This document shows, piece by piece, positions 4,178-47,842 of a stretch of 64,000 bases of DNA. The position numbers and the translations under genes are program-made. The notes under the pieces are model-generated. The model saw nothing but the letters and a program-made list of their open reading frames with translations, did no database searches and was not told where the DNA came from. Every line of letters starts with the position of its first letter. Positions within the stretch are counted from its first letter, which is position 1. This stretch comes from Minisyncoccota bacterium (GTDB taxonomy: Bacteria > Patescibacteriota > Minisyncoccia > Phycocordibacterales > UBA2100): assembly GCA_043780835.1 (NCBI GenBank), contig JAYWCB010000013.1:13512-77511 (forward strand), in the 5' to 3' direction.

Positions 4178-4711
4178 GGCTCGACCATCGCTCCTGATGG
4201 CCTTTTATTTGGGGTCGGAATTGATTTTCTGATCAACGAATATGCCTGACTGCCACTCGGCACGACGGCCTTCAAACCGAAGAGGGCGGGATGTGGATGG
4301 CTGAACTTTGACATTTGAATAGACAAAGCATTTTGCATCGAATTCTGTAGCGGAATTCGGTGTGAGAAAAACAATCAATGTAAATTCACAAAGATTGGTA
4401 AGACTCGAATATCCAATAAGCCGGATGTTCGAGAAGCAATGCAACACACAAGCAAGCAAACAAAATACAACGTACTGCGAAGCCCTAGGAGAGTTTCGTA
4501 GTATATGAGGAATAGAAACAGTACTGATTACATTGATCCAAATGTAAATCAGGAAACAAAAAATCAGATTGAATCATGTTCTTCGAACATGCATAAATGT
4601 GCATTCTTTTGTTTCGTCCATCCTAAAAAAGAACTAAATCAAATTTGTAACAGAATTTCATGGCAGTGCACTCAAGGATCCGTCCACGTGCACACTATGT
4701 AATACATTCTT

Positions 4712-6169
<1,458 letters not shown>

Positions 6170-6254
6170 AAATTGGACGCTGAAACACCCGCGAGGGTGC
6201 GGTAAGCTAATAGGCGATTTGGGTATCTCGATCGAGTACCCAAGGGAAATGGCA

Positions 6255-11223: not shown

Positions 11224-11396
11224 TTCTGATGAGCATAATTATTGTTCTAGCAATAGACCAATCATACATATCGTCACGCACTTGTATATCCTGTGGGGGT
11301 GTATACCTGCCGACCGGGATCGAAGACACTCACTCCTTCAGGTTGTCTTTTTGCCACACGGTGTTCCCAGTGGGAATGTGTCTGTGCGTTAACACT

Positions 11397-13106
11397 CTAT
11401 ACAAGGTGCAATGCCATGCGCATCTCGGCGATGGTGTGAAAGATCGTGCGATGCTCGAAGTAGGAGATGTTTTTGAGGATTTCAAATACGGGGGGCCGTA
11501 CATAAATCATCGATACACGGATGCGTTTTTGCTCAAGGCGTTCGATAAATTCTTCCAGTATTTCCATGCCGCTGATGTCGATAAAATTCACGCCCGACAT
11601 ATCAAACACCACTTCGCGCACCGTGTGGTTCACACGCATTTCGTGGAGCGCGATGAGGCCATGGATCTGATTGAGGGCATGCGAGGTGTTCGCATAATAG
11701 AGCGATACACCAATGCGCGCGATGACCACGCTTGGGAATATATGCACCTGATCGTCTTCGATCGTGCTCAAAAGGACTTTGCGTTCCAGATCAATACCGA
11801 CCTCGGAAACTTGTGCGCCCCACACGGTGCGGCGAATAAAGAGTAAGAGTGCGACAAGCATGCCTGTAAGGAGGGCGTCTTCCGGTTTCATCAGGAAGAC
11901 CATGCAGAACGTAAGTAGTGCGACGACGCCGTCTGAACGTGAAATCTTGTACATCGCCTTGATCCGATGGAAATCAACGAGCGACGCAGCAGAAAGTATC
12001 ACGATAGCGGCGAGAGCAGCGAGCGGCAAATAGTAAAAAACCGGTGTTAAAAAGAGAATGGTAATGACGGTCATTCCAGAACTTACGAGCGACGAGAAGC
12101 CCGATTTTGCACCAGCCTCATTATTTATTGCGGAGCGCGTAAACGATCCACTGATGGGGAATCCTTGGAAGAAACTTGTGGCGATATTTGCAAGACCTTG
12201 TCCGACCAATTCTTGATCGGTATTCAGGTGTTCTTTCTTCGGGCGGGCGAGCGTTGTGGCGTTAGCGTGTGTGGCGACGAATGCGACGAGTGCGATCACA
12301 ACGGCCTTCGGAAGCAGCACAGCGAGCGCAGTTACGCCAAAGAAGGGCAATAAGAAAGACGGTAATCCCGACGGTATGGTGCCCACGATCGCTACATGAT
12401 GGGTGTCGAGCCGGAAAAAATATCCCGCGAGGATTGCAAGCAAAAGTACACCAAGTGCGATCGGATATGTTTTCGGGAGCCGCTTCGTGAGATACAAAAT
12501 TGCCAGTGCCGTTATGCCGACGAGTGTTGTGAGTACGGTCAGACTCGGCAACTCATGCAACAAATTGATGATTGTTTTGAGTACCACATCAGAGCGCGCT
12601 GCAGAAATACCGAGCAAGACCGGAATTTGCGATACCACGATAAGTAATGCTGCGGCCGAGGAAAAACCCGCTATCACCGAGTGAGGAACGAGGTGAATCA
12701 TGGAACCGACACGAAATAATCCAAGGCCAAGATAGAGAAGGCCAGTCAAAAGTGCGAGCGTTGCTGCAAGCCGCACGAATTCGTCAGACCCCGGCGCGGC
12801 GAGTGATACGAGAGATGTGAGGGTGAGCAAACTTACCATTGCGACCGGTCCGGTAGAGAGCGTACGCGATGATCCCCAGAGAGATGCAATACATCCGAAA
12901 AGAGATGCGTACAGTCCGTACACGGCGGGCAGGCCGGCAGTGAGCGCAAACGCCATCGATTGTGGTATCTGAATAATGGCAACGGTGATGCCTGCCTGCA
13001 CATCGGCATGCAAAAACGATGATGAATACCTGAAACCGGGTCGCAGCCAAAGCGGAGTGAACAGGCGTGGAATACCGGCAACAAAACTTTGAACACGCGG
13101 CATCAT
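11397..13106 (-). CDS. SulP-family anion transporter with a C-terminal STAS domain
   Basis: 569 aa. Ten or more TM helices with the SulP signature region, and a C-terminal STAS-like domain (VVFDMSGVNFIDISGMEILEEF). Confidence 0.85.
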   Translation of the reverse strand: MMPRVQSFVAGIPRLFTPLWLRPGFRYSSSFLHADVQAGITVAIIQIPQSMAFALTAGLPAVYGLYASLFGCIASLWGSSRTLSTGPVAMVSLLTLTSLVSLAAPGSDEFVRLAATLALLTGLLYLGLGLFRVGSMIHLVPHSVIAGFSSAAALLIVVSQIPVLLGISAARSDVVLKTIINLLHELPSLTVLTTLVGITALAILYLTKRLPKTYPIALGVLLLAILAGYFFRLDTHHVAIVGTIPSGLPSFLLPFFGVTALAVLLPKAVVIALVAFVATHANATTLARPKKEHLNTDQELVGQGLANIATSFFQGFPISGSFTRSAINNEAGAKSGFSSLVSSGMTVITILFLTPVFYYLPLAALAAIVILSAASLVDFHRIKAMYKISRSDGVVALLTFCMVFLMKPEDALLTGMLVALLLFIRRTVWGAQVSEVGIDLERKVLLSTIEDDQVHIFPSVVIARIGVSLYYANTSHALNQIHGLIALHEMRVNHTVREVVFDMSGVNFIDISGMEILEEFIERLEQKRIRVSMIYVRPPVFEILKNISYFEHRTIFHTIAEMRMALHLV

Positions 13107-13588: not shown

Positions 13589-13660
13589 GCGCTAGTAGTT
13601 CAGTGGTAGAACGCTGTCCTGATAAGACAGAGGTCGTAGGTCCGATTCCTACCTGGCGCA
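13589..13660 (+). tRNA. tRNA-Ile (anticodon GAU)
   Basis: Cloverleaf: 7-bp acceptor (GCGCTAG/CTGGCGC), D-arm gttc/gaac, anticodon stem ctgtc/gacag with loop ctGATaa, T-arm gtagg/cctac with loop tccgatt, discriminator A. CCA is not encoded. Confidence 0.85.
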
Positions 13661-13710
13661 CACAGCACGCAAAACACTCTCTGAGTCGCTCCTCACTACC
13701 ATCCGACAAA

Positions 13711-18246: not shown

Positions 18247-18330
18247 GCCGCGGTGGTGAAATTGGTAGACACGCTAGCTTCAGAAGCTAGTTCTCGGAAG
18301 GGATTGGGAGTTCGAGTCTCCCTCGCGGCA
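18247..18330 (+). tRNA. tRNA-Leu (anticodon CAG)
   Basis: Acceptor GCCGCGG/TCGCGGC, D-arm gtg/cac, anticodon stem gctag/ctagc with loop ttCAGaa, long variable arm (type II tRNA), T-arm gggag ttcgagt ctccc. The gene is uninterrupted. It starts 2 nt after the endonuclease stop. Confidence 0.8.
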
Positions 18331-18427
18331 CATTAATGCAATGCATGTACATCGACGTACATTCCGTCTGGCGTGGTATTACGGACCGGATGTTCTATCT
18401 CCCTAAAAATGCACTATACTGACAATC

Positions 18428-23394: not shown

Positions 23395-23903
23395 TGGTAA
23401 TCTCTCTCAAATATAGATTTGAAGAGAGCGCACGCTACCCAGCCGAAGACTCAAAAGGGGGCCACAAAAGACCTGGCAGGGTTAGCTCCCAGGCGGACCG
23501 ATCTCTCGAGTCAAGATACATCTCGGAGAGAAAACGAGATGTATCTGTTGGATGCGACTCTTATTTTTGCACGATAGCCTTCCACGCTTGATGCTATGGA
23601 GTGGGGATAACACGCGATTGAATACAAAAATGGCTTACTTATTGAGCGTCGGAAACGTCGCACATCGCAACCGGAAACGCTTACGAAACGATACCTCGGG
23701 ATGTCAATTTTTGTATGAAGAGTGATGGTTTTTATGCAACAAAAAACGCGTCGCGGTATACAATACGGCACTGTGCCCGCACACACGAAACGGCATAGTA
23801 TGCGTCGACTCTTTTACCTACCTACAACAAAGTAACAATCTCTATGTCTTCATTATCAATTTCAAACGGCATACAGAGACGATGCCGTTTCGTGTGATCG
23901 GGT

Positions 23904-25130
23904 ATGCAGAACAATCCATGGGAACGCGCGCTTCGTCAGCTGCACACCGCCGCAGCTCATATTGATATCCCAAAGCCATTGCTCGAACGACTGGAAACTC
24001 CTGATCACGTAATCGATGTTTCGATCCCTGTGGTTATGGATGACGGTCGAACCGAAACATTTCAGGGGTACCGCGTGCAGCACAACAACATCCGCGGACC
24101 GTACAAAGGAGGATTGCGCTATCACCCAAATGTAGACATGGACGAGGTCAAGGCGCTCGCATTTTGGATGACAATGAAAAATGCGGTGATCGGTGTGCCG
24201 TTTGGGGGAGGAAAGGGTGGCATCCGCGTTGACCCGAAACAACTTTCCAGCGGCGAACTGGAGCGCTTAACACGCGGATTTACGCGCGAACTCGCACCGC
24301 ACATCGGTCCGCACGTAGATGTGCCTGCGCCGGATGTAAATACGAATTCCACGATCATGAGTTGGATCCGCGATGAGTACTCAAAAATCGTCGGTGAGGA
24401 CACTCCGGCAGTGATTACCGGCAAAGCAGTTGAGCATGGCGGATCGCGTGGCCGAACCGAGGCAACGGGTATCGGTGGTTTTTATGCGCTCGACGAATAT
24501 TTGAAACAGACCGGTCAACAACACAATTTAAGCGCCGCGATTCAAGGAATGGGAAATGTGGGCGGATATTTGGCCGGATACATGCAACAGAGCGGATTCA
24601 AGATCGAAGCTCTCACTGATTCGAAAAGCGGAGTGTATGTGCCCGGCGGATTGCGCGACATTGAGGCAATTCGGACATTCAAAGAGTCGCACGGTTCGCT
24701 TGAGGGTTCTGCAGATTCGGGTGATGCGCAGTACATCGCCTCCGGCGATATTGTTGCGCTTCCGGTCGATATTCTCATACCTTGCGCACTTGAAAATTCA
24801 ATCACCGGTGACAACGCGGGTTCTGTGCAGGCACGGATTATTTTGGAAATGGCAAACGGTCCGACCACGACTGACGCTGATGCAATCCTTGAAAAGAAAT
24901 CGGTGGTAGTAATTCCGGACATTCTTGCAAACGCAGGAGGCGTCGCGGTCTCATATTTTGAGTGGTACCAAAATATTCACCATGAATCATGGACGAAAGA
25001 CGATGTATTTTCTAAACTCTCAGACCTCATGCGTGCAGCTGTCGATACGGTGCTCGTAACCGCACAAGAGAAAAACGTATCGCTGCGAACGGCGGCATAT
25101 ATCGTTGCGCTCAAAAAGCTCTCTGAGTGA
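23904..25130 (+). CDS. gdhA: Glutamate dehydrogenase (Glu/Leu/Phe/Val dehydrogenase family)
   Basis: Catalytic motif GGGKGGIRVDP and the NAD(P)-binding motif GMGNVGGY. Confidence 0.9.
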   Translation: MQNNPWERALRQLHTAAAHIDIPKPLLERLETPDHVIDVSIPVVMDDGRTETFQGYRVQHNNIRGPYKGGLRYHPNVDMDEVKALAFWMTMKNAVIGVPFGGGKGGIRVDPKQLSSGELERLTRGFTRELAPHIGPHVDVPAPDVNTNSTIMSWIRDEYSKIVGEDTPAVITGKAVEHGGSRGRTEATGIGGFYALDEYLKQTGQQHNLSAAIQGMGNVGGYLAGYMQQSGFKIEALTDSKSGVYVPGGLRDIEAIRTFKESHGSLEGSADSGDAQYIASGDIVALPVDILIPCALENSITGDNAGSVQARIILEMANGPTTTDADAILEKKSVVVIPDILANAGGVAVSYFEWYQNIHHESWTKDDVFSKLSDLMRAAVDTVLVTAQEKNVSLRTAAYIVALKKLSE

Positions 25131-28174: not shown

Positions 28175-28310
28175 TGCATGCCCGCACACTAACACTGTCG
28201 TCGTTATGCATGCAGAACAGTGTCTATTTCAGAATATGGCTACCAAATCAGTCAGTCCAAGAGTTGTCAAAATTGTTTCCACGGCATTACGACAGTGTTA
28301 GTGTGCGGGT

Positions 28311-29072
28311 ATGATCGGGATATTTGACTCAGGAGTCGGTGGTCTTACGGTATTGCACGCGATTCGCGAAAATTTGCCGAGCGCAGACGTGATCTATTTC
28401 GGCGATACAAAGAATGCGCCCTACGGTGAAAAAAGTCGGGAACAATTATCTGACCTCACCGTTGCCGCCATTCAGTTATTACAGAAACGCGGAGCGAATA
28501 ATATCGTGAGTGCGTGTAATAGTGTCTCCGCGTCGCTCGCGGTCTCACTTCTTGATGCGTTCGATCTTCAACCGGGACAATTAATCGAGATGGTCGGGCC
28601 AACGGTCAGCGTATTTCGCGGCGCGGATATGCGTATCGCATTGGCAGCGACTCCCGCAACGATCTTGTCTGAAATCTATCAAAATGCATTCCGTATGATT
28701 GGAAAGGATATCCAAGCGATTCCTGTGCCGGGACTCGCTGGTGCCATTGAACTTGGAAAACCGAACGAAGAAATAGAATCAATCATCGCCACTGCCTTTG
28801 CCGGGGTGGATCCTGCATCGTTCGATGTGTTGGTGCTTGCATGTACACACTATCCGTTTGCGACCACTTCATTCAAAGCAGTCCTCGGGGAACAGGTTTC
28901 TCTATTTGATCCGGCACTCGCGGTTGCGGCTCGCGTGGAGAAACAGTTCTGGCCCCGCGAAGTAGGCGACGGTACGACAAGATTTATCATCAGCGCTGAA
29001 TCTGCTGAATTTCGCCGTCTTGTTACACAATTTTTCCCCGACACGCGCATCGATATCGAGGTGCTCGTTTGA
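28311..29072 (+). CDS. murI: Glutamate racemase (MurI)
   Basis: N-terminus IGIFDSGVGGLTVL and the second catalytic Cys motif ACTHYP. Confidence 0.9.
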   Translation: MIGIFDSGVGGLTVLHAIRENLPSADVIYFGDTKNAPYGEKSREQLSDLTVAAIQLLQKRGANNIVSACNSVSASLAVSLLDAFDLQPGQLIEMVGPTVSVFRGADMRIALAATPATILSEIYQNAFRMIGKDIQAIPVPGLAGAIELGKPNEEIESIIATAFAGVDPASFDVLVLACTHYPFATTSFKAVLGEQVSLFDPALAVAARVEKQFWPREVGDGTTRFIISAESAEFRRLVTQFFPDTRIDIEVLV

Positions 29073-31428: not shown

Positions 31429-32151
31429 ATGAACGAAGGCGCGAGTGAAGATTCAGAGAACCCGAACCCGAATGGGCGGCTCTCGGTTGTAGCTACTCCC
31501 ATCGGAAACATGGGGGATATTACATTTCGGGGACTCTGGAATCTCAAAGAGGCGAATGTGATTTACGCAGAAGATACGAGGGTTACGTCGAAGCTCCTCG
31601 CGCACTACGGTCTTCGCACGTCGCTCCAACGCCTCGACGCGGCAACCGAAGGAAAAAAGGGACCAGAAATTGCTGATCGACTCGCGGCAGGGGAACATGT
31701 GGCACTTGTGACGGATGCGGGCACGCCAGGGATTTCCGACCCGGGTTCGCGTCTGATTGCATACATTCGAGAACACGCGCCACTCGCAGTTATTGATGCC
31801 ATTCCCGGTGCAAGCGCACTTACTGCCGCGCTTTCAATTGCGGGTATTGATGCAACGCAATTTACATTTCTTGGATTTCTGCCGCACAAAAAAGGTCGTC
31901 AAACAGCGGTAACAAATATCTCGAAAAGCACGATACCGGTTGTGCTTTATGAATCGCCGCATCGCGTCCTGAAACTCCTTGCCGAAATCCAAAAGGCGGC
32001 ACCGAAGTTTCGCGTGACCATTGCCCGTGAAATCACGAAGATGCACGAAGAAGTGCTTGTGGGCACTGCTTCGGAGCTTGCGGCAGCGCTCGAAAAGAAG
32101 AAAGGAGTACGAGGGGAATTTGTGGTCATACTTGAACCCGTTAAAAAATAG
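31429..32151 (+). CDS. rsmI: 16S rRNA (cytidine1402-2'-O)-methyltransferase RsmI (tetrapyrrole-methylase fold)
   Basis: N-terminus LSVVATPIGNMGDITFRGLWNLKEANVIYAEDTRVT is typical of RsmI. About 240 aa. Confidence 0.8.
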   Translation: MNEGASEDSENPNPNGRLSVVATPIGNMGDITFRGLWNLKEANVIYAEDTRVTSKLLAHYGLRTSLQRLDAATEGKKGPEIADRLAAGEHVALVTDAGTPGISDPGSRLIAYIREHAPLAVIDAIPGASALTAALSIAGIDATQFTFLGFLPHKKGRQTAVTNISKSTIPVVLYESPHRVLKLLAEIQKAAPKFRVTIAREITKMHEEVLVGTASELAAALEKKKGVRGEFVVILEPVKK

Positions 32152-39461: not shown

Positions 39462-39500
39462 ATCAGCAGCGCGGGAGCAATCCCGCGCTGCTTTCTTTTT
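39462..39500 (+). terminator. Intrinsic terminator
   Basis: Stem cagcagcgcggg..cccgcgctgctt followed by tctttttg. Confidence 0.6.
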
Positions 39501-39529
39501 GCCTACGGTCCGCTACCATGCGCTGAATG

Positions 39530-39598
39530 AATCCCGTTAGAAATAGCCCGCCCGTAGGCCCTGTGGGCGCGCCTAGCGCGGGCGCGATTTCTAACGGG
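39530..39598 (+). repeat. Hairpin-forming inverted-repeat element, copy 1 (arms ATCCCGTTAGAAAT / ATTTCTAACGGGAT)
   Basis: 14-bp perfect IR flanking a 42-nt GC-rich internal palindrome. Flanked by direct ATGAA at 39527 and 39599. The downstream ATG is the start of the GT4 gene. The element is in frame with that gene. Confidence 0.7.
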
Positions 39599-40810
39599 AT
39601 GAAGAAAATTCTTATTTTCTCGCTCACGTACCATCCGTATGTGGGTGGCGCAGAAGTTGCTCTGAAAGAAATCACGGACCGCTTGCCGGAATACGAATTC
39701 CACATGATCACGCTTCGCTTTGACAGTGCGCTACCGTATGCGGAAGAAAAAGGAAATATTACGCTCTATCGCATCGGGCCCTCGGTTTCGAATCCGACGG
39801 TATCCGACAGGAACATGCCGTTTATGCTGCGTCTCGCTAAATGGCTGTATCCGATCAATGCCGCGCTCACTGCACTCGCGCTGCACCGCACGCAACGCTT
39901 TGACCTGACGTGGTCAATGATGGCGAATCACGCAGGGTTTGCGGGCATGATTTTCAAACTGTTTCATCCAAATGTGCCGCACGTGCTTGAGCTACAGGAT
40001 GGCCGCGCATTTGCAGACATGAAAGATCGTCAGCCGATCCTGCGCCTTATCTGGCCGCTCTATACCCGCGTGTACCGATGTGCGGATGCTATCAAGGTGA
40101 TTTCGAACTTCCTCGCGAATGAAGTACAGAAACTCGGCGTATCCGCGCCGGTGCATATTATTCCCAACGGAGTCGATGTCGCAAAATTTTCCGCACCGAT
40201 TTCAGACGAGCGGATTCTCGATTTGAAAAACAAACTGAATAAAAAAATGGGGGATGTGATTTTGTTCACCGCGTCACGTCTCGTGCTCTCCCGTGGTGTC
40301 GAGGACACCATCCGCGCACTCTCACATTTGCCTGATAACGTGCGGTTTGTCGTGGCGGGTACCGGTGACGACAAAGAAAAACTTGAAACAATCGCTCGCG
40401 AGGCGCAGGTTGCAGATCGTGTGCAGTTCGTGGGGCATGTCGATCACCGAGAACTCCCGGCGTATTACAAAGCGTCGGATATTTTTGTGAGACCGTCGAT
40501 CATCGAAGGTTTCGGGAATGCATTTGTTGAAGCCTTTGCGGCCGGGATTCCGGTGGTTGCAACTGCAGTCGGGGGCATTCCTGATTTTCTTTTTGATCCG
40601 GATAAAAATAGCGACAAACCACCGACGGGGCTTTTTTGTTCGGTCCGTGATCCGGTATCGATTGCCGCAGCGGTGACGCGATACATCGATACTCCGGCAT
40701 TGGTATCAGAGGTTGTCTCAAACGCAAAAATACTGGTCGCAGAAAAGTACGACTGGAATAGTATTGCGAAAATGCAAAAAGATTTCATGTTCGAGGCTCT
40801 CTTAAAATAA
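39599..40810 (+). CDS. Glycosyltransferase family 4 (GT4)
   Basis: EX7E motif region (EGFGNAFVEAFAAGIPVV). The ORF could extend upstream through the repeat to the ATG at 39527 (extra MNPVRNSPPVGPVGAPSAGAISNG). Confidence 0.8.
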   Translation: MKKILIFSLTYHPYVGGAEVALKEITDRLPEYEFHMITLRFDSALPYAEEKGNITLYRIGPSVSNPTVSDRNMPFMLRLAKWLYPINAALTALALHRTQRFDLTWSMMANHAGFAGMIFKLFHPNVPHVLELQDGRAFADMKDRQPILRLIWPLYTRVYRCADAIKVISNFLANEVQKLGVSAPVHIIPNGVDVAKFSAPISDERILDLKNKLNKKMGDVILFTASRLVLSRGVEDTIRALSHLPDNVRFVVAGTGDDKEKLETIAREAQVADRVQFVGHVDHRELPAYYKASDIFVRPSIIEGFGNAFVEAFAAGIPVVATAVGGIPDFLFDPDKNSDKPPTGLFCSVRDPVSIAAAVTRYIDTPALVSEVVSNAKILVAEKYDWNSIAKMQKDFMFEALLK

Positions 40811-41214
40811 TCCTGCGCACCGAAACCGCTTGCGTGCTTCGTATATACGCGCTTATGTGAATACAGCGTCAACCACGGGAGGCTCTGATGGACTCAGTTC
40901 TTACGGCCTACATCGATGCGAATGAACGTGCTGCTCGAGCACATATGGGTCTCGTGCATGCGTCTATGGCGTTTTATCTCACGTTCGTGACGAGGTGCAT
41001 TGTTGAACCATTGCTTGCGGTTTTGCCGCCGTCTGCCGCACAGCGCGCAATTTCCGCAGTGAGACGATCGTCTTTCGGTGCACATGTGGTCATCGAGACC
41101 AATGTACCGCAATGGAATCTGCGCGCATAAGCGGAACTGGCGCGATGGAAAATCGGTGATAGTTTAACGATAGGCATAGCGTTCAATTGTGCCTCAACGG
41201 AAAGGAGTGACAGA

Positions 41215-41391
41215 ATGACAACCATCTGCACCTCAAGGCCCGAAGCGGATGCGCGTCTTTTATATCCACCGCTCGCACGCGAAGTTGCCCAATTCTGGGC
41301 CGGCGCTCTGGATACCACTGTGCTCTTGCCGTTCAATATCTGGTTTCGAATTGTGTTTGCAATAACTCCTCGGAAACCGGAAACTGCATAG
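41215..41391 (+). CDS. Possible small ORF (58 aa)
   Basis: AAAGGAG RBS 7 nt upstream of the ATG. Not in the ORF track (under 60 aa). Weak support. Confidence 0.25.
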   Translation: MTTICTSRPEADARLLYPPLAREVAQFWAGALDTTVLLPFNIWFRIVFAITPRKPETA

Positions 41392-41472
41392 CCCTCAGTG
41401 CTGACCTGAACCTTTTTTGATGGCGTGCTACATCTCGTAGCGCGCCATCATGCTTTGCGCTATGGTGACCTC

Positions 41473-41757
41473 ATGAATCCCGTTAGAGATTCTGACAATT
41501 GGTACACCTATGTTTTGCGTAGTAAAAAGGACCAGAAATGGTATACAGGGTTCACGCACGATCTTCGGAAGCGCTTCAAAGAGCATAGCGATGGTCAGAG
41601 CGTGTCAACAAAAAACCGTGGCCCATTTGAGCTCATATATTATGAAATGTGTCGGAATGAAACAGATGCAAGGTCGAGAGAATTATTTCTTAAATCGGGA
41701 ATGGGCAAGCGTTTCCTCAAAACTCGTATGAAGCGCTTCCTATCTCTAACGGGATGA
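41473..41757 (+). CDS. GIY-YIG nuclease-family small protein (UPF0213/YhbQ-like)
   Basis: WYTYVLRS...WYTGFTHDLRKRFKEHSDG...FELIYYEMCRNETDARSRELFLK matches the GIY-YIG core. The N-terminal MNPVRD and C-terminal SLTG residues are encoded by the inverted-repeat arms. The stop overlaps the next gene's ATG (ATGA). Confidence 0.75.
   Translation: MNPVRDSDNWYTYVLRSKKDQKWYTGFTHDLRKRFKEHSDGQSVSTKNRGPFELIYYEMCRNETDARSRELFLKSGMGKRFLKTRMKRFLSLTG
41476..41753 (+). repeat. Hairpin-forming inverted-repeat element, copy 2 (arms ATCCCGTTAGAGAT / ATCTCTAACGGGAT) carrying a GIY-YIG ORF
   Basis: 14-bp perfect IR. Flanking direct ATGAA at 41473 and 41754. The loop region equals the GIY-YIG coding sequence. Confidence 0.7.
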
Positions 41758-42746
41758 AGGTGGTAATAGCGACCGGAATATTCCCGCCCGAAGTGGGCGG
41801 TCCTGCGTTTTACTCCAAGAGCCTCTCCGAAGCGCTCAGTGCACAAGGACACGACGTGCGCGTTGTGTTGTATGGAACTTTAAAGTCGTGGCCGAGCGGG
41901 CTTCGTCACGCGCTGTACTGTTTTAAGCTTATGCGGCATGCATTTGGTGCAACATCTATCATCGCGTTCGATACATATTCTGTCGGATTGCCTGCGGTCG
42001 TTGCGGGGATGTTGATGCGAGTGCCGGTCACGATTCGCATCGGCGGGGATTTTATATGGGAAATGTATACCGAGCGCACGGGCGATTTAATACCACTTAC
42101 GGAGATTTATCATGAGCGGGGACGATGGGACTCGAAAGAACGTTTTATCTTCCGAGTGCAGCGCTGGGTCATTCCGCGTGCGACACTCGCGTTTTCGTGC
42201 GCATGGATCCGCGACTTGTGGAAAGATGTCTATTCATTTGATGACACGCAAACAAGTGTTATCGAAAATCCGATACCGCAGAAGCTCGAATCTAAGAAGC
42301 CGCTTCGAAAGAATTTTGCGTTTTACACGCGGCAGATCGCACTCAAGAATAACGATGCGTTCCGCCGAGCGTTTAATCGCGCAAAAAATGTGCACCCCGA
42401 CATTGAGCTCGAAGAGGGCATGGTGCCAAAGGACGATCTGATGCGCCGCATGCAGGAATGCTACGCGGTTGTGCTCCCGTCAATCTCCGACGTGACGCCG
42501 AATTACATAATCGACGCGATACGATGTGGAAAACCTTTTTTGCTGACGAAATACAGTGGCTACGCCGAGCGGTTCAAGGAGTATGGTGTGATCGTGGATC
42601 CGTTAAGCGAAGAGGATATGACCCGGGGCATCATGGCACTTGCCGAAGAAAAGACGTATGACATCTACAAAAAACGGCTTGCGGAGTTCGACACCGTACG
42701 CACGTTTGATGACATCGCGCGCGAGTTTATCGCGCTTACGAACTGA
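41754..42746 (+). CDS. Glycosyltransferase (GT4-like)
   Basis: N-terminus MKVVIATGIFPPEVGGPAFYSKSL is typical of the GT4 N-domain. Confidence 0.75.
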   Translation: MKVVIATGIFPPEVGGPAFYSKSLSEALSAQGHDVRVVLYGTLKSWPSGLRHALYCFKLMRHAFGATSIIAFDTYSVGLPAVVAGMLMRVPVTIRIGGDFIWEMYTERTGDLIPLTEIYHERGRWDSKERFIFRVQRWVIPRATLAFSCAWIRDLWKDVYSFDDTQTSVIENPIPQKLESKKPLRKNFAFYTRQIALKNNDAFRRAFNRAKNVHPDIELEEGMVPKDDLMRRMQECYAVVLPSISDVTPNYIIDAIRCGKPFLLTKYSGYAERFKEYGVIVDPLSEEDMTRGIMALAEEKTYDIYKKRLAEFDTVRTFDDIAREFIALTN

Positions 42747-43497
42747 CCTTCTTCGCCTTTACGATAAAAGCGGTCCCAAGAAATCGAAGTGGGGTGCGAT
42801 CGAGATGCTCGCACACTTTCGACAACCACACGGTGAATTTTGGGAGAAGTCTATCAAGCGGAAAGGGAACGAGTTTAAAATTGTAGTAGAGGACTTCCGT
42901 CGTCTCTAATCCGTGCTCACGTTGGAGTGCGATTACATGTTCGTGCGTGTATTCGCGGTGCAGCAAAATCTTCTTTTTACCCGGTTGTACGATAGATACT
43001 AAAAAACGGAGGAAGCGATTCCAGAGCCGCCACGGACTACGCACATTCGGGTAGGTGATGATTGATATACCGTCGTCTTTTAAAATACGGTTCGTTTCTT
43101 TGAGGTATCGCGGTTCGTCGTCGAGGTATTCAATAAGCCCCATTGCGGTCACGATGTCGAACGCTTTATCTGGAACAGCAAGCACATACGCATCGCCCAC
43201 TGCACATGTAACATGCGGGTCACCGGCCGCTTCTTGTTTTGCGAGCTCCACCATATCCGGTGCGGCATCAATCGCGGTCACCTCGTAGTGCTTTGCGCGC
43301 AAACCTTTGATCATAATGCCCGGCCCGCACGCGAGATCGAGAATGTGCAGCCCCGCGCCGTCCGGGAGCATATCGAGCACCTTTTCGCGCCGCACTCGAA
43401 ATGAGTAGCCTTCGGGTGTTTCGTCCGTGTACCAGCCGAGGTAGGTCTTACTTAAGTCATTGAAATATGTCACCTCTGTTCTTCGATCTGTAGTCAT
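42736..43497 (-). CDS. Class I SAM-dependent methyltransferase
   Basis: Motif I ILDLACGPGIM. Confidence 0.8.
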   Translation of the reverse strand: MTTDRRTEVTYFNDLSKTYLGWYTDETPEGYSFRVRREKVLDMLPDGAGLHILDLACGPGIMIKGLRAKHYEVTAIDAAPDMVELAKQEAAGDPHVTCAVGDAYVLAVPDKAFDIVTAMGLIEYLDDEPRYLKETNRILKDDGISIITYPNVRSPWRLWNRFLRFLVSIVQPGKKKILLHREYTHEHVIALQREHGLETTEVLYYNFKLVPFPLDRLLPKFTVWLSKVCEHLDRTPLRFLGTAFIVKAKKVSS

Positions 43498-44462
43498 AGT
43501 CGTGATTTCAGGAATAATCGCACACCGCTCAGTATATTGGCAAATGTCGCAAAGTCCTCCGTCGCATCGAGCGCGAATCGATGAAGCCGATACGGCGAAG
43601 TCGTCGCATCGTTTACGCCCTCGATGGTAGTGAGAGCGTATGCAAAACCTGCCTCTTTCAACAGCACTTCGGTATCAGCATTCCAATCGCCTGATTGACC
43701 GTTGGGATACGCGAATACCGACGAAACAGTCACTCCGAGCGCTTCCAGATCGTGCTTTGAGCCCAGGATTTCATCTCGTTGTTCAGTGGTAGATTGTGTG
43801 GCCAAAATCGGATGCGTTTTGGTATGCGCCCCGAACGATATGCCATGCGTCTGCATCTCTAGGATCTCACTCTCTGAGAGCGGAGCGTACACCGCTCGAT
43901 CGTCGTCAAAATCTTCGAATTTCGTCCAACCGATTTGTTCGACGTTGCGCAGGTCGTGTTCGAGCATCAATGGTGAAAGTTTCTTGAACCGATCCCGGGT
44001 CTCGGCATCAAGCGCAATTTTCTCGGCATACGTGCCCTCGTCTTTTCCGATTGCATATTCGAGCCGATCGACCCACAAGGGAACTGATCGACACACGAAG
44101 TCTGTTGCGAGATATACGATAGCAGGAATGCCGCGTGCGCGCAGGATGGGAAACGCATGTGTGTAGAAATTTTTGTAGCCGTCATCAAATGTAATCACGA
44201 GCGCATTTTCCGGAAGCGTTCCCGCGATCATGCGCTGCGCCGCCTCTTCCATGGGCAGTATTGTGTACCGATTTTTCATGTATTCGATCTGTTGGGCGAA
44301 GCTTTCCGGCGTAATGAATTTGCCCCGGTAATTGTAAATGCCCGAGTCAATACGGGGTGCTACACCGTGATACAGTACGATCGTAAGCGAATGTTTATGC
44401 CTAGTACGGAACAAAGCGGGGACACCGCACAGATACAACAGTCGAAAGAAGAGGCGCTTCAT
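43494..44462 (-). CDS. Polysaccharide deacetylase (NodB-homology, CE4)
   Basis: NodB motifs (VITFDDGYKNFY, H-rich motif region). The likely start MKRLFF is at 44462. The listed ORF extends to 44498 through the repeat arm (MRHCRPRPISNG). Confidence 0.8.
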   Translation of the reverse strand: MKRLFFRLLYLCGVPALFRTRHKHSLTIVLYHGVAPRIDSGIYNYRGKFITPESFAQQIEYMKNRYTILPMEEAAQRMIAGTLPENALVITFDDGYKNFYTHAFPILRARGIPAIVYLATDFVCRSVPLWVDRLEYAIGKDEGTYAEKIALDAETRDRFKKLSPLMLEHDLRNVEQIGWTKFEDFDDDRAVYAPLSESEILEMQTHGISFGAHTKTHPILATQSTTEQRDEILGSKHDLEALGVTVSSVFAYPNGQSGDWNADTEVLLKEAGFAYALTTIEGVNDATTSPYRLHRFALDATEDFATFANILSGVRLFLKSRL

Positions 44463-44573
44463 CCCGTTAGAAATAGGACGCGGACGACAATGTCGCACAC
44501 CCTAAACCGCTATGCCCAATAAAGACGACCATATGGAAGATAGTACCAGCGCGTCCGCGATTTCTAACGGGAT
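44463..44573 (-). repeat. Hairpin-forming inverted-repeat element, copy 3 (opposite orientation; arms ATTTCTAACGGGAT / ATCCCGTTAGAAAT)
   Basis: 14-15-bp IR flanking an 85-nt segment. In minus-strand orientation the flanks read ATGAAT...ATGAAG, as in copies 1 and 2. The minus-strand deacetylase gene starts at the duplicated ATG. Confidence 0.7.
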
Positions 44574-44691
44574 TCATCCGCTGCATTATAGGCCATATTC
44601 GGTACTCACTGTAGGTACTGAGCTCGCCGTGCTTTCCCCTGAGTCGCCGGTACGAAAACGAATTTTTTCATATGGTAGGTATTTCAAGGCA

Positions 44692-45669
44692 ATGCACATT
44701 GTGCTCATGAGTGGAATTACCGGTCAGGGTAATGCGCACGACGAAAACGTGACGGTGTACCCGACGAATTCACCGTCAAAAATACTTCGCTACTTTGACG
44801 CCCTCAAGATCGGCAAGACAATTGCAGGAATCGACATTGTTTCGTCGCAGGACCCGTTTGAGATCGGATTTATTTCCTGGCGTATCTCGCGACACCACAA
44901 GGTGCCGCTGCATGTGCAGGTACATACTGACTTTCTTTCACCGGAATACGCCGCGCATTCAATCATCAATTTGATACGGGTCGTGATCGCAGGATTTATT
45001 TTGCATCGTGCGGCACATGTACGCGTTGTTTCAAAAGAAGTCGCGGATCGCATCATCGCAAAGTACGGGACAAAAATCCCGCTTTCAATACTACCGATTT
45101 ACGTAGATCTCGAACGGTTCCGTTCCGCAACGGTTCCCGTGTCGATGTCGCAACGATTCCTCACATTTCCGCACAAGGTTCTGGTGGTTGCGCGATTTGA
45201 GCCTGAGAAAAATGTGCTGTTGGCAATTGATGCGTTTTTTGAAGGTGCACCGAAAGACGCGTGCCTCATAATCCTCGGCGAGGGGAGCGAGTATACGATG
45301 CTCGAGCGGCGTGTCACCAAACTCGGGCTTGATGCACGCGTGTTTTTTGAGGGGTACAAAGACCCATCGCCGTATTACGCGCTTGCCGATATCGTGCTCG
45401 TGCCGTCCGTGTATGAGGGCTACGGACAAGTGATAATTGAGGCACTCGCGGCACATAAACCGGTCCTTTCAACGGATGTGGGAATTGCAAAAGAAAGCGG
45501 CGCGATGATCGCCGCACCCGAGCAATTCGGCGCTGCACTGAAGGCGTGGTACGAAAACGGACCGCGAACGGCAGAACTCGTAAACTACCCGTACCCGTCA
45601 CTTCAAGATTACGTGGAGAAATATTGCGACGACATCGCATCTGTTAAAAAAGAAAAAACCGCGGTGTAA
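44692..45669 (+). CDS. Glycosyltransferase family 4 (GT4)
   Basis: C-terminal GT4 motif VPSVYEGYGQVIIEALAAHKPVLSTDVG. The start is taken at MHIVLMSG. The listed ORF extends upstream to 44512 through the repeat (..AISNGIHP..). Confidence 0.75.
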   Translation: MHIVLMSGITGQGNAHDENVTVYPTNSPSKILRYFDALKIGKTIAGIDIVSSQDPFEIGFISWRISRHHKVPLHVQVHTDFLSPEYAAHSIINLIRVVIAGFILHRAAHVRVVSKEVADRIIAKYGTKIPLSILPIYVDLERFRSATVPVSMSQRFLTFPHKVLVVARFEPEKNVLLAIDAFFEGAPKDACLIILGEGSEYTMLERRVTKLGLDARVFFEGYKDPSPYYALADIVLVPSVYEGYGQVIIEALAAHKPVLSTDVGIAKESGAMIAAPEQFGAALKAWYENGPRTAELVNYPYPSLQDYVEKYCDDIASVKKEKTAV

Positions 45670-45690
45670 CCCGCGGTTTTTTTACACAAA
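45656..45690. terminator. Bidirectional intrinsic terminator
   Basis: aaaaaaccgcggtgtaacccgcggttttttt. Confidence 0.6.
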
Positions 45691-45751
45691 GGCACCTCTC
45701 ACAAGCTGGTGCTTTTGGCAATGTTGCGATAGCCCAATGAATACGCCATAA

Positions 45752-46687
45752 TTGGCCACTATGAAGAAGCTACCCCTAAAAAAGACGTCAAAAAAGGGGC
45801 CTCTCGTCGGGTTTGTTGGTCAGGGCTGGCTCGGAAAAAACTATGCAGACGATTTTGAAAAGAGAGGCTATTCGGTGATTCGCTACTCATTGGAAGAACC
45901 GCATGTAAAGAATAGGGACGCAATTTCAACCTGCGATATTGTTTTTATCGCGGTGCCTACGCCGACGACACCGAAAGGTTTTCAGGACCACATTGTGCGC
46001 GAGGCTCTCGCACACGTGGGGAATGGAAAGATTGCCGTCATTCGCTCAACACTGATGCCGGGAACGTTGCGCTCGATGCAAAAGCAGTATCCCAAGAAGA
46101 TTCTCATGCATGCACCTGAATTCTTGAGCAGAATTACTGCGGCAGATGATGCCGCGCATCCGGCACAAAATATTATTGGCATAGCGCGGGCGACACCTGC
46201 CTACACGGCGGCGGCAAAGAAGGTCCTCGCAGTGATGCCAAAAGCGCCGTCCATGATTGTTTCTGCGGAGACCGCCGAACTCTACAAATACGTGCACAAC
46301 ACGTCATTGTTTGCACGCTCAATTTTTATGAATCTACTTTATGAGATAGCTGTCGGATTTGGCGTTGATTGGGATGATATAAAACGTGCCATCCAGCGAG
46401 ATCCGATGATCGCGTTTCAGGTGGAAAATGTATCGCACTGGCATATTGAGCCGCGACACACGGGGGGACGCGGCATCGGCGGTGATTGTCATATCAAAGA
46501 TATCGAGACACTCTCGCGTGTGTACGCGCAGGTTGTTGGTGACACGGACGGAACAAAGGCCATCGATGCGATGAAGCGCAAAAACATTCATTTACTTTTG
46601 CAGAGCAAAAAAGATCTGCACTTGCTTGAAGGTGTATACGGCACACAGGTACACAAAAAGATTTTAAAGAAAGGTTCAAAGAAATAG
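45752..46687 (+). CDS. UDP-glucose/GDP-mannose dehydrogenase-family protein, short (311 aa)
   Basis: N-terminal NAD-binding motif (GFVGQGWLG), IAVPTP motif and a catalytic-Cys motif GGDCHIKD. The usual C-terminal UDP-binding domain is missing. The stop lies 1 nt before repeat copy 4. Confidence 0.65.
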   Translation: MATMKKLPLKKTSKKGPLVGFVGQGWLGKNYADDFEKRGYSVIRYSLEEPHVKNRDAISTCDIVFIAVPTPTTPKGFQDHIVREALAHVGNGKIAVIRSTLMPGTLRSMQKQYPKKILMHAPEFLSRITAADDAAHPAQNIIGIARATPAYTAAAKKVLAVMPKAPSMIVSAETAELYKYVHNTSLFARSIFMNLLYEIAVGFGVDWDDIKRAIQRDPMIAFQVENVSHWHIEPRHTGGRGIGGDCHIKDIETLSRVYAQVVGDTDGTKAIDAMKRKNIHLLLQSKKDLHLLEGVYGTQVHKKILKKGSKK

Positions 46688-46691
46688 TATG

Positions 46692-46810
46692 CGTCCCGTT
46701 AGAGGCCGCGGAAGCTACCGCATGTTTTTGTTCACGGTATAGTGTTTTACATGAACGAACCTACGCAGAGCGAGCGGGTTCGGGAAGCGACGCTTCCTGC
46801 CTCTAACGGG
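46692..46810 (+). repeat. Hairpin-forming inverted-repeat element, copy 4 (arms GTCCCGTTAGAGGC / GCCTCTAACGGGAT)
   Basis: 13-14-bp IR with compensatory changes relative to the other copies. Flanking direct ATGCG at 46689 and 46811. The downstream ATG starts a GT gene. Confidence 0.7.
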
Positions 46811-47842
46811 ATGCGCCTTTTGATCGTCACACAGGCGGTCGACACAAAGGATCCGGTACTCGGTTTTTTTCACCGATGGATCGAGGAAATGGCAGCGCAC
46901 ACGGAGCGCGCGCACGTGATCTGTCTCAAAGAGGGTACGCACTCGCTGCCTGCACATGTGACCGTGCATTCATTGGGAAAGGAGACGGGTCGCTCTCGTC
47001 TCAAATACGTCTTACGGTTTTATTCGTATATATGGCGCTTACGAGGCGAGTATGACGCGGTGTATGTGCACATGAATCAAGAATACGTGCTGCTGGGAGG
47101 TTTGTTGTGGAGGCTCCTCGGTAAAAAAATCGTGCTGTGGCGCAATCATAAGATCGGTACGGTGTGGACGAACATTGCTTGTGTACTTTCAAATACCGTC
47201 TGCTTCACCTCTGGCGCCGCGTATGTTGCGCGTGAACGTAACGCGGTTCAAATGCCGATCGGTGTAGACACGACACTGTTCGCGCCGCGCGGTGCTGTGC
47301 TTGCGCGATCAGTTCTGTTCCTCGGGCGTCTTGATCCCGTAAAGAATGTGCACTTGTTCGTCTCTGCGCTCACAAAAATGTACGAGTCAGGAGAAGTATT
47401 CAAGGCGGCAATATACGGTTCACCGACGGATCCGAGATCAAAATATGCGCACGATGTGCGAAATCAAGCAACTGTCCTCGCGACCGAAGGAGTCCTGAGT
47501 GTACACGACGGCGTGACCAACGACGATGCCGCAAAGCTCTTCGCGGAACACGAAGTGTACGTAAACCTCACACCCTCGGGAAGTTTCGACAAGACAATCG
47601 GTGAGGCAATGTCAGCGGGTGCGATTGTCGTAGCGATGAACGCTGAGGTACAGCCGGTGCTGCCAGCGTCTCTTTTTGTACACGATGAAACACCCGAGAG
47701 TGCTGCGTATGCAATTACCGCAGCACTTGCACTCCCATCAGTGGAGCGCGATCGGATCGTCAATATTTCGCGTCGCTACATCAGCGATGAGCATTCACTT
47801 ACAAAGCTCGTTACAAAACTCATGCCGTTGCTATCTACCTAG
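46811..47842 (+). CDS. Glycosyltransferase (GT4-like)
   Basis: The start MRLLIVTQ sits directly at the repeat's 3' flank. GT-B fold-like sequence. Confidence 0.7.
   Translation: MRLLIVTQAVDTKDPVLGFFHRWIEEMAAHTERAHVICLKEGTHSLPAHVTVHSLGKETGRSRLKYVLRFYSYIWRLRGEYDAVYVHMNQEYVLLGGLLWRLLGKKIVLWRNHKIGTVWTNIACVLSNTVCFTSGAAYVARERNAVQMPIGVDTTLFAPRGAVLARSVLFLGRLDPVKNVHLFVSALTKMYESGEVFKAAIYGSPTDPRSKYAHDVRNQATVLATEGVLSVHDGVTNDDAAKLFAEHEVYVNLTPSGSFDKTIGEAMSAGAIVVAMNAEVQPVLPASLFVHDETPESAAYAITAALALPSVERDRIVNISRRYISDEHSLTKLVTKLMPLLST

Follow-up and report, generated by a model that had tools for sequence, protein, structure and literature searches.

Introduction

Small GIY-YIG nucleases associated with DNA hairpin repeats have recently been described in bacteria by Chenal et al. 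(2025, Nat Commun; PMC11893778). SsnA of Neisseria meningitidis is a 94-amino acid (aa) single-domain GIY-YIG protein which binds its hairpin repeat (NTS/dRS3, or SRM in generalised form) exclusively when it is single-stranded DNA (ssDNA), cuts a few nucleotides 5' of the hairpin and tolerates a hairpin split over two strands (PMC11893778). The ssn gene is itself flanked by repeats, and the authors remark on its insertion sequence (IS)-like look and suggest domestication; the Ssn clade corresponds to cd10448, with E<1e-10 to N. meningitidis SsnA as the criterion (PMC11893778). By term search, target-site duplication (TSD), start codons and bacteria of the Candidate Phyla Radiation (CPR) are unmentioned in the paper, and its passages covered here contain no empty-site comparison (PMC11893778). 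Here we describe a 64,000-nucleotide stretch of DNA from a Minisyncoccota bacterium (GenBank assembly GCA_043780835.1, contig JAYWCB010000013.1, positions 13,512 to 77,511 of the forward strand), referred to as the window and numbered from its first nucleotide, in which four hairpin-forming inverted-repeat elements lie on the start codons of genes of a glycan cluster, one of them carrying a gene for a 94-aa GIY-YIG nuclease.

The four loci are probably copies of a single miniature mobile-element family of CPR/Patescibacteria, made up of an autonomous copy which encodes the nuclease and of derivatives resembling miniature inverted-repeat transposable elements (MITEs). Empty orthologous sites, target duplications and arm conservation across the family led us to regard the elements as mobile rather than as conserved leaders. 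Literature text searches for GIY-YIG together with CPR bacteria, with MITEs or with terminal inverted repeats (TIRs) and TSD returned no description of this element.

Results

Four hairpin elements on start codons of the glycan cluster

Four inverted-repeat pairs on the start codons of glycan-cluster genes had been reported in the first-pass annotation of the window, and both the count of the core and a repeat finder bore this out. Exactly 8 occurrences of the nine-base core CCCGTTAGA were counted in the 64-kb window. They pair up as inverted repeats at 39533/39590 (copy 1), 41479/41745 (copy 2), 44463/44563 (copy 3) and 46695/46802 (copy 4), and the repeat finder recovered the same four pairs. 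Each pair forms a 14-bp stem with the arms ATCCCGTTAGAnnn/nnnTCTAACGGGAT. Perfect complementarity, which had been noted for every copy, holds for copies 1–3, whereas copy 4 has 13 Watson-Crick pairs and one G:T pair at the outermost position. Folded as ssDNA, copies 1, 3 and 4 gave z-scores of -4.5 to -5.4, and 0 of 200 shuffles folded as well. Rfam covariance models returned no match at the elements, either at gathering thresholds or at E<=1.

The flanking repeats, ATGAA three times and ATGCG once, are present as first described, with the downstream unit starting the open reading frames (ORFs) MKKIL, MKVVI, MKRLF and MRLLI. Copy 1 is a short non-coding hairpin of 68 bp (39532–39599) bounded by TGAA at 39528–39531 and 39600–39603, and its last base is the first base of the start codon of a GT4 glycosyltransferase gene (MKKIL; 39599–40810, plus strand). 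Copy 3 had been described as inverted in the first-pass annotation; relative to the canonical polarity of the family it is copy 1 (minus strand) which is inverted, and copy 3 is co-directional with its gene. Read from the upstream ATG, copy 1 is in frame with the GT4 gene and adds a 24-codon N-terminal extension (ORF 39527–40810). Its subfamily also includes an element of a Kaiserbacteria genome, L011:17077–17142, which lies at another gene. A terminator-like GC-rich hairpin with a T-run (cagcgcgggagcaatcccgcgctgctttcttttt) is conserved upstream of this site, at 39463–39500 in the window and at 5738–5765 in the syntenic contig L081 (introduced below), so that the site-1 element sits between a terminator and the start of the next gene.

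Copy 2, the autonomous element, measures 277 bp (41478–41754, plus strand; TCCCGTTAGAGAT...ATCTCTAACGGGA), with arms at 41478–41490 and 41742–41754 and TGAA flanks at 41474–41477 and 41755–41758, and is followed by a glycosyltransferase gene (MKVVI; 41754–42746, plus strand). Copy 3, a short hairpin of 111 bp (44462–44572, minus strand), is flanked by TTCA, the reverse complement of TGAA, at 44458–44461 and 44573–44576; its interior holds an inner stem CGCGGAC/GTCCGCG with a 3' TCCT bulge, and its host is a polysaccharide deacetylase gene (MKRLF; 43494–44462, minus strand). Copy 4 is a short hairpin of 118 bp (46694–46811, plus strand) bounded by TGCG at 46690–46693 and 46812–46815; it has a right subterminal hairpin GGAAGCG/CGCTTCC followed by CCTG, and precedes a further glycosyltransferase gene (MRLLI; 46811–47842, plus strand). 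Weak tblastn similarity at 46566–46811 was discounted, since in our judgement the arm-encoded peptide was its only anchor.

Copy 2 encodes a GIY-YIG nuclease within its arms

It had been stated in the first-pass annotation that no transposase gene was visible in the window and that the inner segments of the elements were unrelated. The first statement was wrong, as copy 2 encodes a GIY-YIG nuclease of 94 codons (MNPVRD...RFLSLTG*; 41473–41757, plus strand; Pfam PF01541, E=9e-16). The second holds for the interiors of the short copies, which are mostly unrelated to one another, but not for the ~250 nt of copy 2, which are a complete nuclease ORF. The ATG of this ORF (41473–41475) lies in the left copy of the flank and its TGA (41755–41757) in the right copy of the duplication, where it overlaps the host ATG at 41754–41756 (ATGA), while the two arms of the element double as the first (AAT CCC GTT AGA GAT) and last (TCT CTA ACG GGA) codons of the ORF.

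PF01541 covers residues 9–75 and no extra domain was found on the 94-aa protein, in which all family-invariant residues are present. The AF2 model has a pLDDT of 84, with a core of ~90 and with residues 1–10 and 91–94 at low confidence. The nearest solved structures were those of UPF0213 BH0048 and then Slx1, and the nuclease relates to the UPF0213, Slx1 and Ssn branch of the GIY-YIG superfamily. The spacing of 11 residues between the two tyrosines (Y13–Y24) is the same as in N. meningitidis SsnA (Y6–Y17), and the catalytic glutamate E70 follows the second tyrosine by 46 residues, compared with 47 in SsnA (E64). A palindrome, GAAGCGCTTC, occurs twice within the nuclease ORF (41565–41585 and 41727–41742), where it encodes K33-R34-F35 and K87-R88-F89. 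Codons near it are unusually fixed across the family (R32 as CGG, 97%; F89 as TTC, 97%), and the palindromes could be extra cis-acting sites.

Public gene calls exist for L082, a Logan contig of SRR23617225 which corresponds to window positions 31754–52746 and is identical over 21 kb. These calls omit the nuclease ORF, place a 52-aa ORF on the opposite strand in its stead, and fuse copy 1 to the glycosyltransferase (427 aa); such elements are therefore likely to be under-annotated. Exact-protein look-ups gave no record for the nuclease, nor for two of the host proteins when begun at their true ATG.

Three of four orthologous sites in a related genome are empty

L081, a contig from SRR28401816, is syntenic with the glycan cluster of the window at ~65–77% nucleotide identity and contains only one element. 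This is a full-length nuclease element at site 1 (GT4, 403 aa), where the window has the short inverted hairpin. At site 2 (glycosyltransferase, 330 aa) the window carries the full-length nuclease element and L081 is empty (gcgtcATGAAgctcgtg); at site 3 (deacetylase) and site 4 (glycosyltransferase, 343 aa) the window carries short hairpins and L081 is again empty (gctcTTCAtgtgg and cataacATGCGactcc, respectively). At each of sites 2–4 the target is single-copy in L081, the arms are absent, and the coding sequences can be aligned from the ATG. Most weight falls on site 4, where TGCG and not the usual TGAA is duplicated. The nuclease copies of the window and L081 are 82.6% identical, which is above the identity of the flanking genes. 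A comparison with element-free orthologues had been put forward with the first-pass annotation as the way to decide on insertion; with sites 2, 3 and 4 single-copy and element-free in L081, it supports insertion, and the proposal of a transposition-type event with terminal inverted repeats and duplication of a start-codon target gains the same support.

Target duplication and the start codon

A catalogue of 131 distinct elements (80 full-length and 51 short) was assembled from 80 loci and the window, for which the symmetric definition YCCCGTTAGA...TCTAACGGGR was used. The four flanking bases were identical on both sides in 82/131 elements, and the next four bases outward, taken as a control, in 4/131. 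An exact 4-bp repeat was also found in 27 of the 59 non-TGAA elements (permutation mean 2.4, maximum 8), with TGAG, TGAT, TGGA, TGCG, TTTA, TAAA, TATG, CTCA, TTGA and CTGG among the repeats seen. The direct repeat of 5 bp in the first-pass annotation therefore stands as a duplication but not in its length: it is best parsed as 4 bp (TGAA or TGCG) plus the terminal A of the element, which with this last base itself supplies the A of the downstream ATG. On insertion four bases of the form T-G-N-N, most often TGAA, are duplicated, and the common T...A-ended form sits on A|TGAA of a start codon. In T...A-ended copies with exact duplication (n=60) ATGAA comprised the sole conserved target positions, and the target logo of T...A-ended elements contained no Shine-Dalgarno-like signal.

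The consequences for coding follow from this arrangement. The original host ATG, together with its preceding ribosome-binding context, whatever it is, now opens the nuclease ORF; the duplicated TGA closes it; and the last base of the element with the duplicated TG rebuilds the host start codon, giving the ATGA overlap. In the common subfamily the element proper has neither a start nor a stop codon of its own; the target and its duplicated copy supply both. Elements of the C...G-ended variant rebuild the downstream start codon as GTG. The right arm TCTAACGGGATGA deals with all three frames entered from the upstream ATG: one frame ends at a TAA inside the right arm (copy 3), one at the TGA over the host ATG (copy 2), and one runs into the host protein (copy 1, the 427-aa ORF annotated by the gene caller). 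In copy 4 an internal TAG closes the frame at an earlier point.

In 55 of the 80 full-length copies the last base of the element is also the first base of an ORF of at least 80 codons. For short copies of assigned polarity such an ORF lay downstream in 20/34 and on the other side in 2, one of which is copy 1 of the window. The window contains 199 ATGAA pentamers, only ~16 of which are candidate gene starts, and the position of the elements on start codons is strongly non-random. The host genes, however, are not specifically those of glycan clusters as had first been supposed. Among the annotated host loci, which are a non-random sample, the start codons of topA (three lineages), alaS, pheT, folD, pilM, pilB and pilC are occupied in addition to glycan genes, and insertion is compatible with the expression of essential genes, given that topA (three times), alaS and pheT serve as hosts. 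The topA start codon is occupied by full-length or short elements in L005, L032 and L074, and type IV pilus operons in L008 and L063 carry elements on several genes (pilM, pilB, pilC).

The family in CPR genomes

Homologues of the nuclease numbered 1,869, nearly all of them of 94 aa among the matches listed. The best protein relatives were from Kaiserbacteria and Paceibacterota, with others from further CPR lineages, and at least 583 loci in species-representative genomes carry the nuclease, almost all in CPR/Patescibacteria and some in bins labelled Omnitrophota. A protein-profile scan of 2.9 million viral contigs found no relatives, and the DNA pattern gave two chance matches there, both lacking a GIY-YIG ORF.

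The protein termini MNPVRD and RFLSLTG are the most conserved stretches of the family alignment. In a codon-use table of 36 intact ORFs the terminal residues P3, V4, R5, S91, L92 and T93 are each specified by one codon (CCC, GTT, AGA, TCT, CTA and ACG) in 97–100% of the ORFs carrying the residue, and invariant interior residues use 2–6 synonymous codons. Because the terminal codons are fixed and the protein tails are of low confidence in the model, the constraint appears to act on DNA rather than on protein, and the conservation of the arms points to a nucleotide-level constraint.

The compensating changes between arms (GAAAT/ATTTC, GAGAT/ATCTC and GAGGC/GCCTC) noted in the window are real and generalise to the 131 elements. 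The stem spans positions -1 to 12, and the variable positions 0, 10, 11 and 12 (T:A or C:G, and G:C or A:T, among other variants) are Watson-Crick paired in 95–99% of elements; over the 14 bp the arms are 95–100% complementary. Some covarying pairs change the protein, as with D6G and S91P in L017. Within a genome, other copies depart from the resident full-length copy in the distal part of the stem and yet keep the pairing, which suggests recognition of the distal positions by structure and of the inner ten by sequence.

Three features are retained by the short copies, namely the stem of 14 bp, a 3' (A/T)CCT bulge and, in most cases, a small hairpin beside the right arm, which corresponds to GAAGCGCTTCCT at the 3' end of the nuclease ORF. 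Their interiors are otherwise mostly unrelated to each other and to the ORF, and with almost no interior similarity the short copies do not form a single conserved non-coding RNA. A simple internal deletion of the neighbouring full-length copy accounts for one of them, L033:3043. Tandem arrays of a full-length and then a short copy were observed at L033 (2763–3161), L061 (5262–5661) and L073 (~10000). Arrays such as ATGAA[full]TGAA[short]TGAA in L061 show that each insertion regenerates a usable target.

Other features of the window

A second hairpin family has the same CCCG...CGGG termini as the main family and different arms. Its two members, CCCGCACAC...GTGTGATCGGG at 23776–23902 and CCCGCACACTAACACTGTCG...CGACAGTGTTAGTGTGCGGG at 28181–28309 (both plus strand), end on the TATG starts of ORFs at 23904–25130 and 28311–29072, respectively, and no coding partner was found for this family within the window. 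CCCG...CGGG hairpins number six in total in the window, and shuffles gave at most 1. The window also holds a 16S rRNA gene (4711–6171), with no 23S match anywhere in the window, a tRNA-Ile(GAT) gene 7 kb from the 16S gene (13589–13661), a tRNA-Leu(CAG) gene (18247–18331), and several imperfect inverted repeats around 11318–11831.

Discussion

Proposed mechanism

We infer both that the nuclease is the mobilising enzyme and the chemistry by which the element would transpose. The nuclease may recognise the arms as an ssDNA hairpin, with the inner ten positions read as sequence and the distal three as structure, and by analogy with Ssn its nick would fall at the border of the 4-bp duplication, a few bases 5' of the stem; completion of the move would be left to the replication, repair or ligation functions of the host. 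Expression of the host gene could be kept by termination-reinitiation coupling, and for short copies the stem may juxtapose upstream signals with the new AUG, or the host protein may be reached by in-frame read-through.

A number of points weigh against mobility driven by this nuclease. The empty-site comparison rests on one related genome, and the 4-bp repeat is imperfect in 49/131 elements. Some full-length copies of other subfamilies have their own ATG a few codons in, and many C...G-ended copies lie away from start codons. The association with start codons could result from selection against disruptive insertions and not from targeting, and the repeated occupation of topA (three times) and pilC (twice) may stem from old vertical inheritance and not from ongoing mobility. 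The origin of the short copies is only partly explained, as their interiors are mostly unrelated. Stem mismatches gave no excess of G:T over A:C (~11 vs 9 in the 131 elements), and with so few mismatches this asymmetry says nothing on whether the stem acts as RNA or ssDNA or as a double-stranded TIR. Strand transfer is not known for any GIY-YIG enzyme and the element encodes no ligase or recombinase, which makes the joining step the main gap in the model. That a small GIY-YIG nuclease acting on a DNA hairpin, aided by host repair, would suffice for transposition, and that the 277-bp autonomous element would accordingly define a new mechanistic class of prokaryotic transposon, is a proposal we make tentatively, with somewhat less than even expectation.

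Alternative explanations

Among the alternatives the one which survives best is a domesticated system of the Ssn type, in which cutting of incoming ssDNA beside the hairpins would modulate recombination or transformation at surface loci (glycan and pilus clusters), as has been proposed for Neisseria; on this view the insertions would be ancient. In the window, L025, L008 and L063 the elements are concentrated in gene clusters for glycans and type IV pili, the same host genes recur across lineages, and the nuclease ORF is under strong purifying selection; the clustering parallels that of NTS around Neisseria surface genes as described by Chenal et al. (PMC11893778). Against this, presence or absence differs at all four sites between two relatives of ~70% nucleotide identity, tandem re-insertions occur, and housekeeping genes are also occupied, although the annotated loci are non-random. 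We consider domestication unlikely; it concerns the reason why elements persist and is compatible with mobility.

It is less probable still, and in our estimation improbable, that another, unlinked enzyme moves the hairpins, with the GIY-YIG ORF as a passenger or a homing-type endonuclease riding in one of them. GIY-YIG nucleases cut DNA and are not known to join it, and the short copies of a genome carry distal arm sequences unlike those of its full-length copy. The ORF nevertheless fills the element exactly, the arms serve as its end codons in hundreds of genomes, no other ORF is found inside any copy, and no transposase-like partner is consistently adjacent at the loci examined. The protein also lacks the DNA-binding domains of homing GIY-YIG enzymes and, unlike phage homing endonucleases, has no relatives in the 2.9 million viral contigs.

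An ordinary, vertically inherited stem-loop leader which sequesters the AUG for shared translational control, offered as an alternative in the first-pass annotation, can be dismissed as an origin with very little reservation: the A and U of the host AUG are indeed paired at the base of the stem, but the L081 orthologues at sites 2–4 lack the structure and have the flank repeat in single copy, the same arms occur on unrelated genes in many phylum-level CPR lineages, one copy encodes a nuclease, and no Rfam family matches. The stem may still affect translation of the host genes at the RNA level.

Significance

If this reading is true, the data would be the first comparative-genomic evidence, in the form of target duplications and empty sites, for units of a small GIY-YIG nuclease and a hairpin as real transposons. 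The smallest known insertion sequences are ~700 bp; an element of 277 bp would be far smaller, and would parasitise host start codons while essential genes still function. It would be an extremely economical selfish gene whose inverted repeats are its own end codons and whose start and stop come from the duplicated target, with a route for insertion on the start codons of essential genes (topA, tRNA synthetases) without killing them. It would also bear on translational coupling and on the annotation of gene starts in CPR genomes. The family points to a large pool of paired nuclease and hairpin specificities, of the kind proposed as ssDNA tools. Chenal et al. raised the transposon nature of Ssn units as a hypothesis only (PMC11893778).

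Comparison with known systems

The statement in the first-pass annotation that the elements match no nameable architecture was too strong. They are MITE-like, with TIRs, TSD and an autonomous partner, and they resemble the association of Ssn with hairpin repeats (SRM, NTS) (PMC11893778).

The likeness to MITEs with an autonomous IS partner (for example Correia/NEMIS and Nezha) lies in the TIRs, a short target duplication of fixed length, non-coding derivatives which outnumber the coding copy, and presence/absence polymorphism between relatives. The differences are that the sole encoded protein here is a GIY-YIG nuclease and not a DDE, HUH, serine or tyrosine enzyme, and that the autonomous copy is only 277 bp and without start and stop codons of its own. 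With IS200/IS605 and REP/RAYT units (REPtrons) the elements share a hairpin recognised as ssDNA, very small size, dispersed hairpin copies and a nuclease gene lying between the hairpins on which its product acts. IS200/IS605 elements, however, have neither TIRs nor target duplication, whereas here a 4-bp duplication is the rule and no HUH/Y1 transposase is present; membership of IS200/IS605 or REP-RAYT was rejected because there is no HUH domain or enzyme, TIRs are present and a TSD is made.

GIY-YIG homing endonucleases, whether free-standing or intron-encoded (I-TevI, Seg proteins), have the same catalytic domain and a selfish lifestyle between or ahead of host genes. The nuclease described here differs in its length (94 aa vs >200 aa), in having no DNA-binding domain and no intron, and in having many unrelated target genes with duplication and not one allele; TIGR01453 matched it with only 19 bits against a cut-off of 56. 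Lacking a DNA-binding domain and absent from viral contigs, it is not a homing endonuclease of this type. An integron attC site was rejected by eye, as the order GTTAGA...TCTAAC is the reverse of R''...R' and GTTAGAA/GTTAGAG are unlike GTTRRRY. Rickettsia palindromic elements lie within coding regions, away from start codons, and are not known to have a defined autonomous copy. They share with copy 1 the property of palindromic repeats readable in frame with host proteins. Rickettsia is among the SRM-rich genomes listed by Chenal et al. (PMC11893778).

The closest likeness is to Ssn/SRM (PMC11893778). Both systems have a single-domain GIY-YIG protein of ~94 aa, a hairpin repeat which brackets the gene with further copies dispersed next to genes, a hairpin polarity set by non-palindromic neighbours, and repeat cores which begin TCCC(C)G. 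In the window the nuclease ORF is flanked by the arms and three further hairpins lie within 7.3 kb, with many more in other genomes. The CPR gene differs in lying inside the loop of a single hairpin whose arms are coding, and not between two complete hairpins. The SRM pattern HGTCWY N0-2 YYVSBRH N0-5 WNVSBRG N0-2 RNCYNB had 0 matches on either strand of the window and 4 around an Azospirillum homologue. SRM-flanked homologues from Azospirillum and Sinorhizobium were taken as the comparison proteins for Ssn, and the CPR profile scored 34 bits (E ~2e-7) against these hairpin-flanked homologues, and 41 bits (BH0048) and 25 bits (EF2693) against UPF0213 structures. On plasmid AZO_p3 of Azospirillum lipoferum 4B (L086; 255506–255799) a 97-aa GIY-YIG gene lies between sufB and sufC with two inverted pairs of hairpins resembling NTS (CGTCATCCCCGCGAAGGCGGGGATCCAG) around it, and this locus looks like an Ssn-type unit inserted into an operon. 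The CPR family is Ssn-like in design, which is a likeness of design and not a clade assignment. The element is a variant of the recently described association of small GIY-YIG nucleases with hairpins, to which it adds direct comparative evidence of transposition and a design parasitic on start codons.

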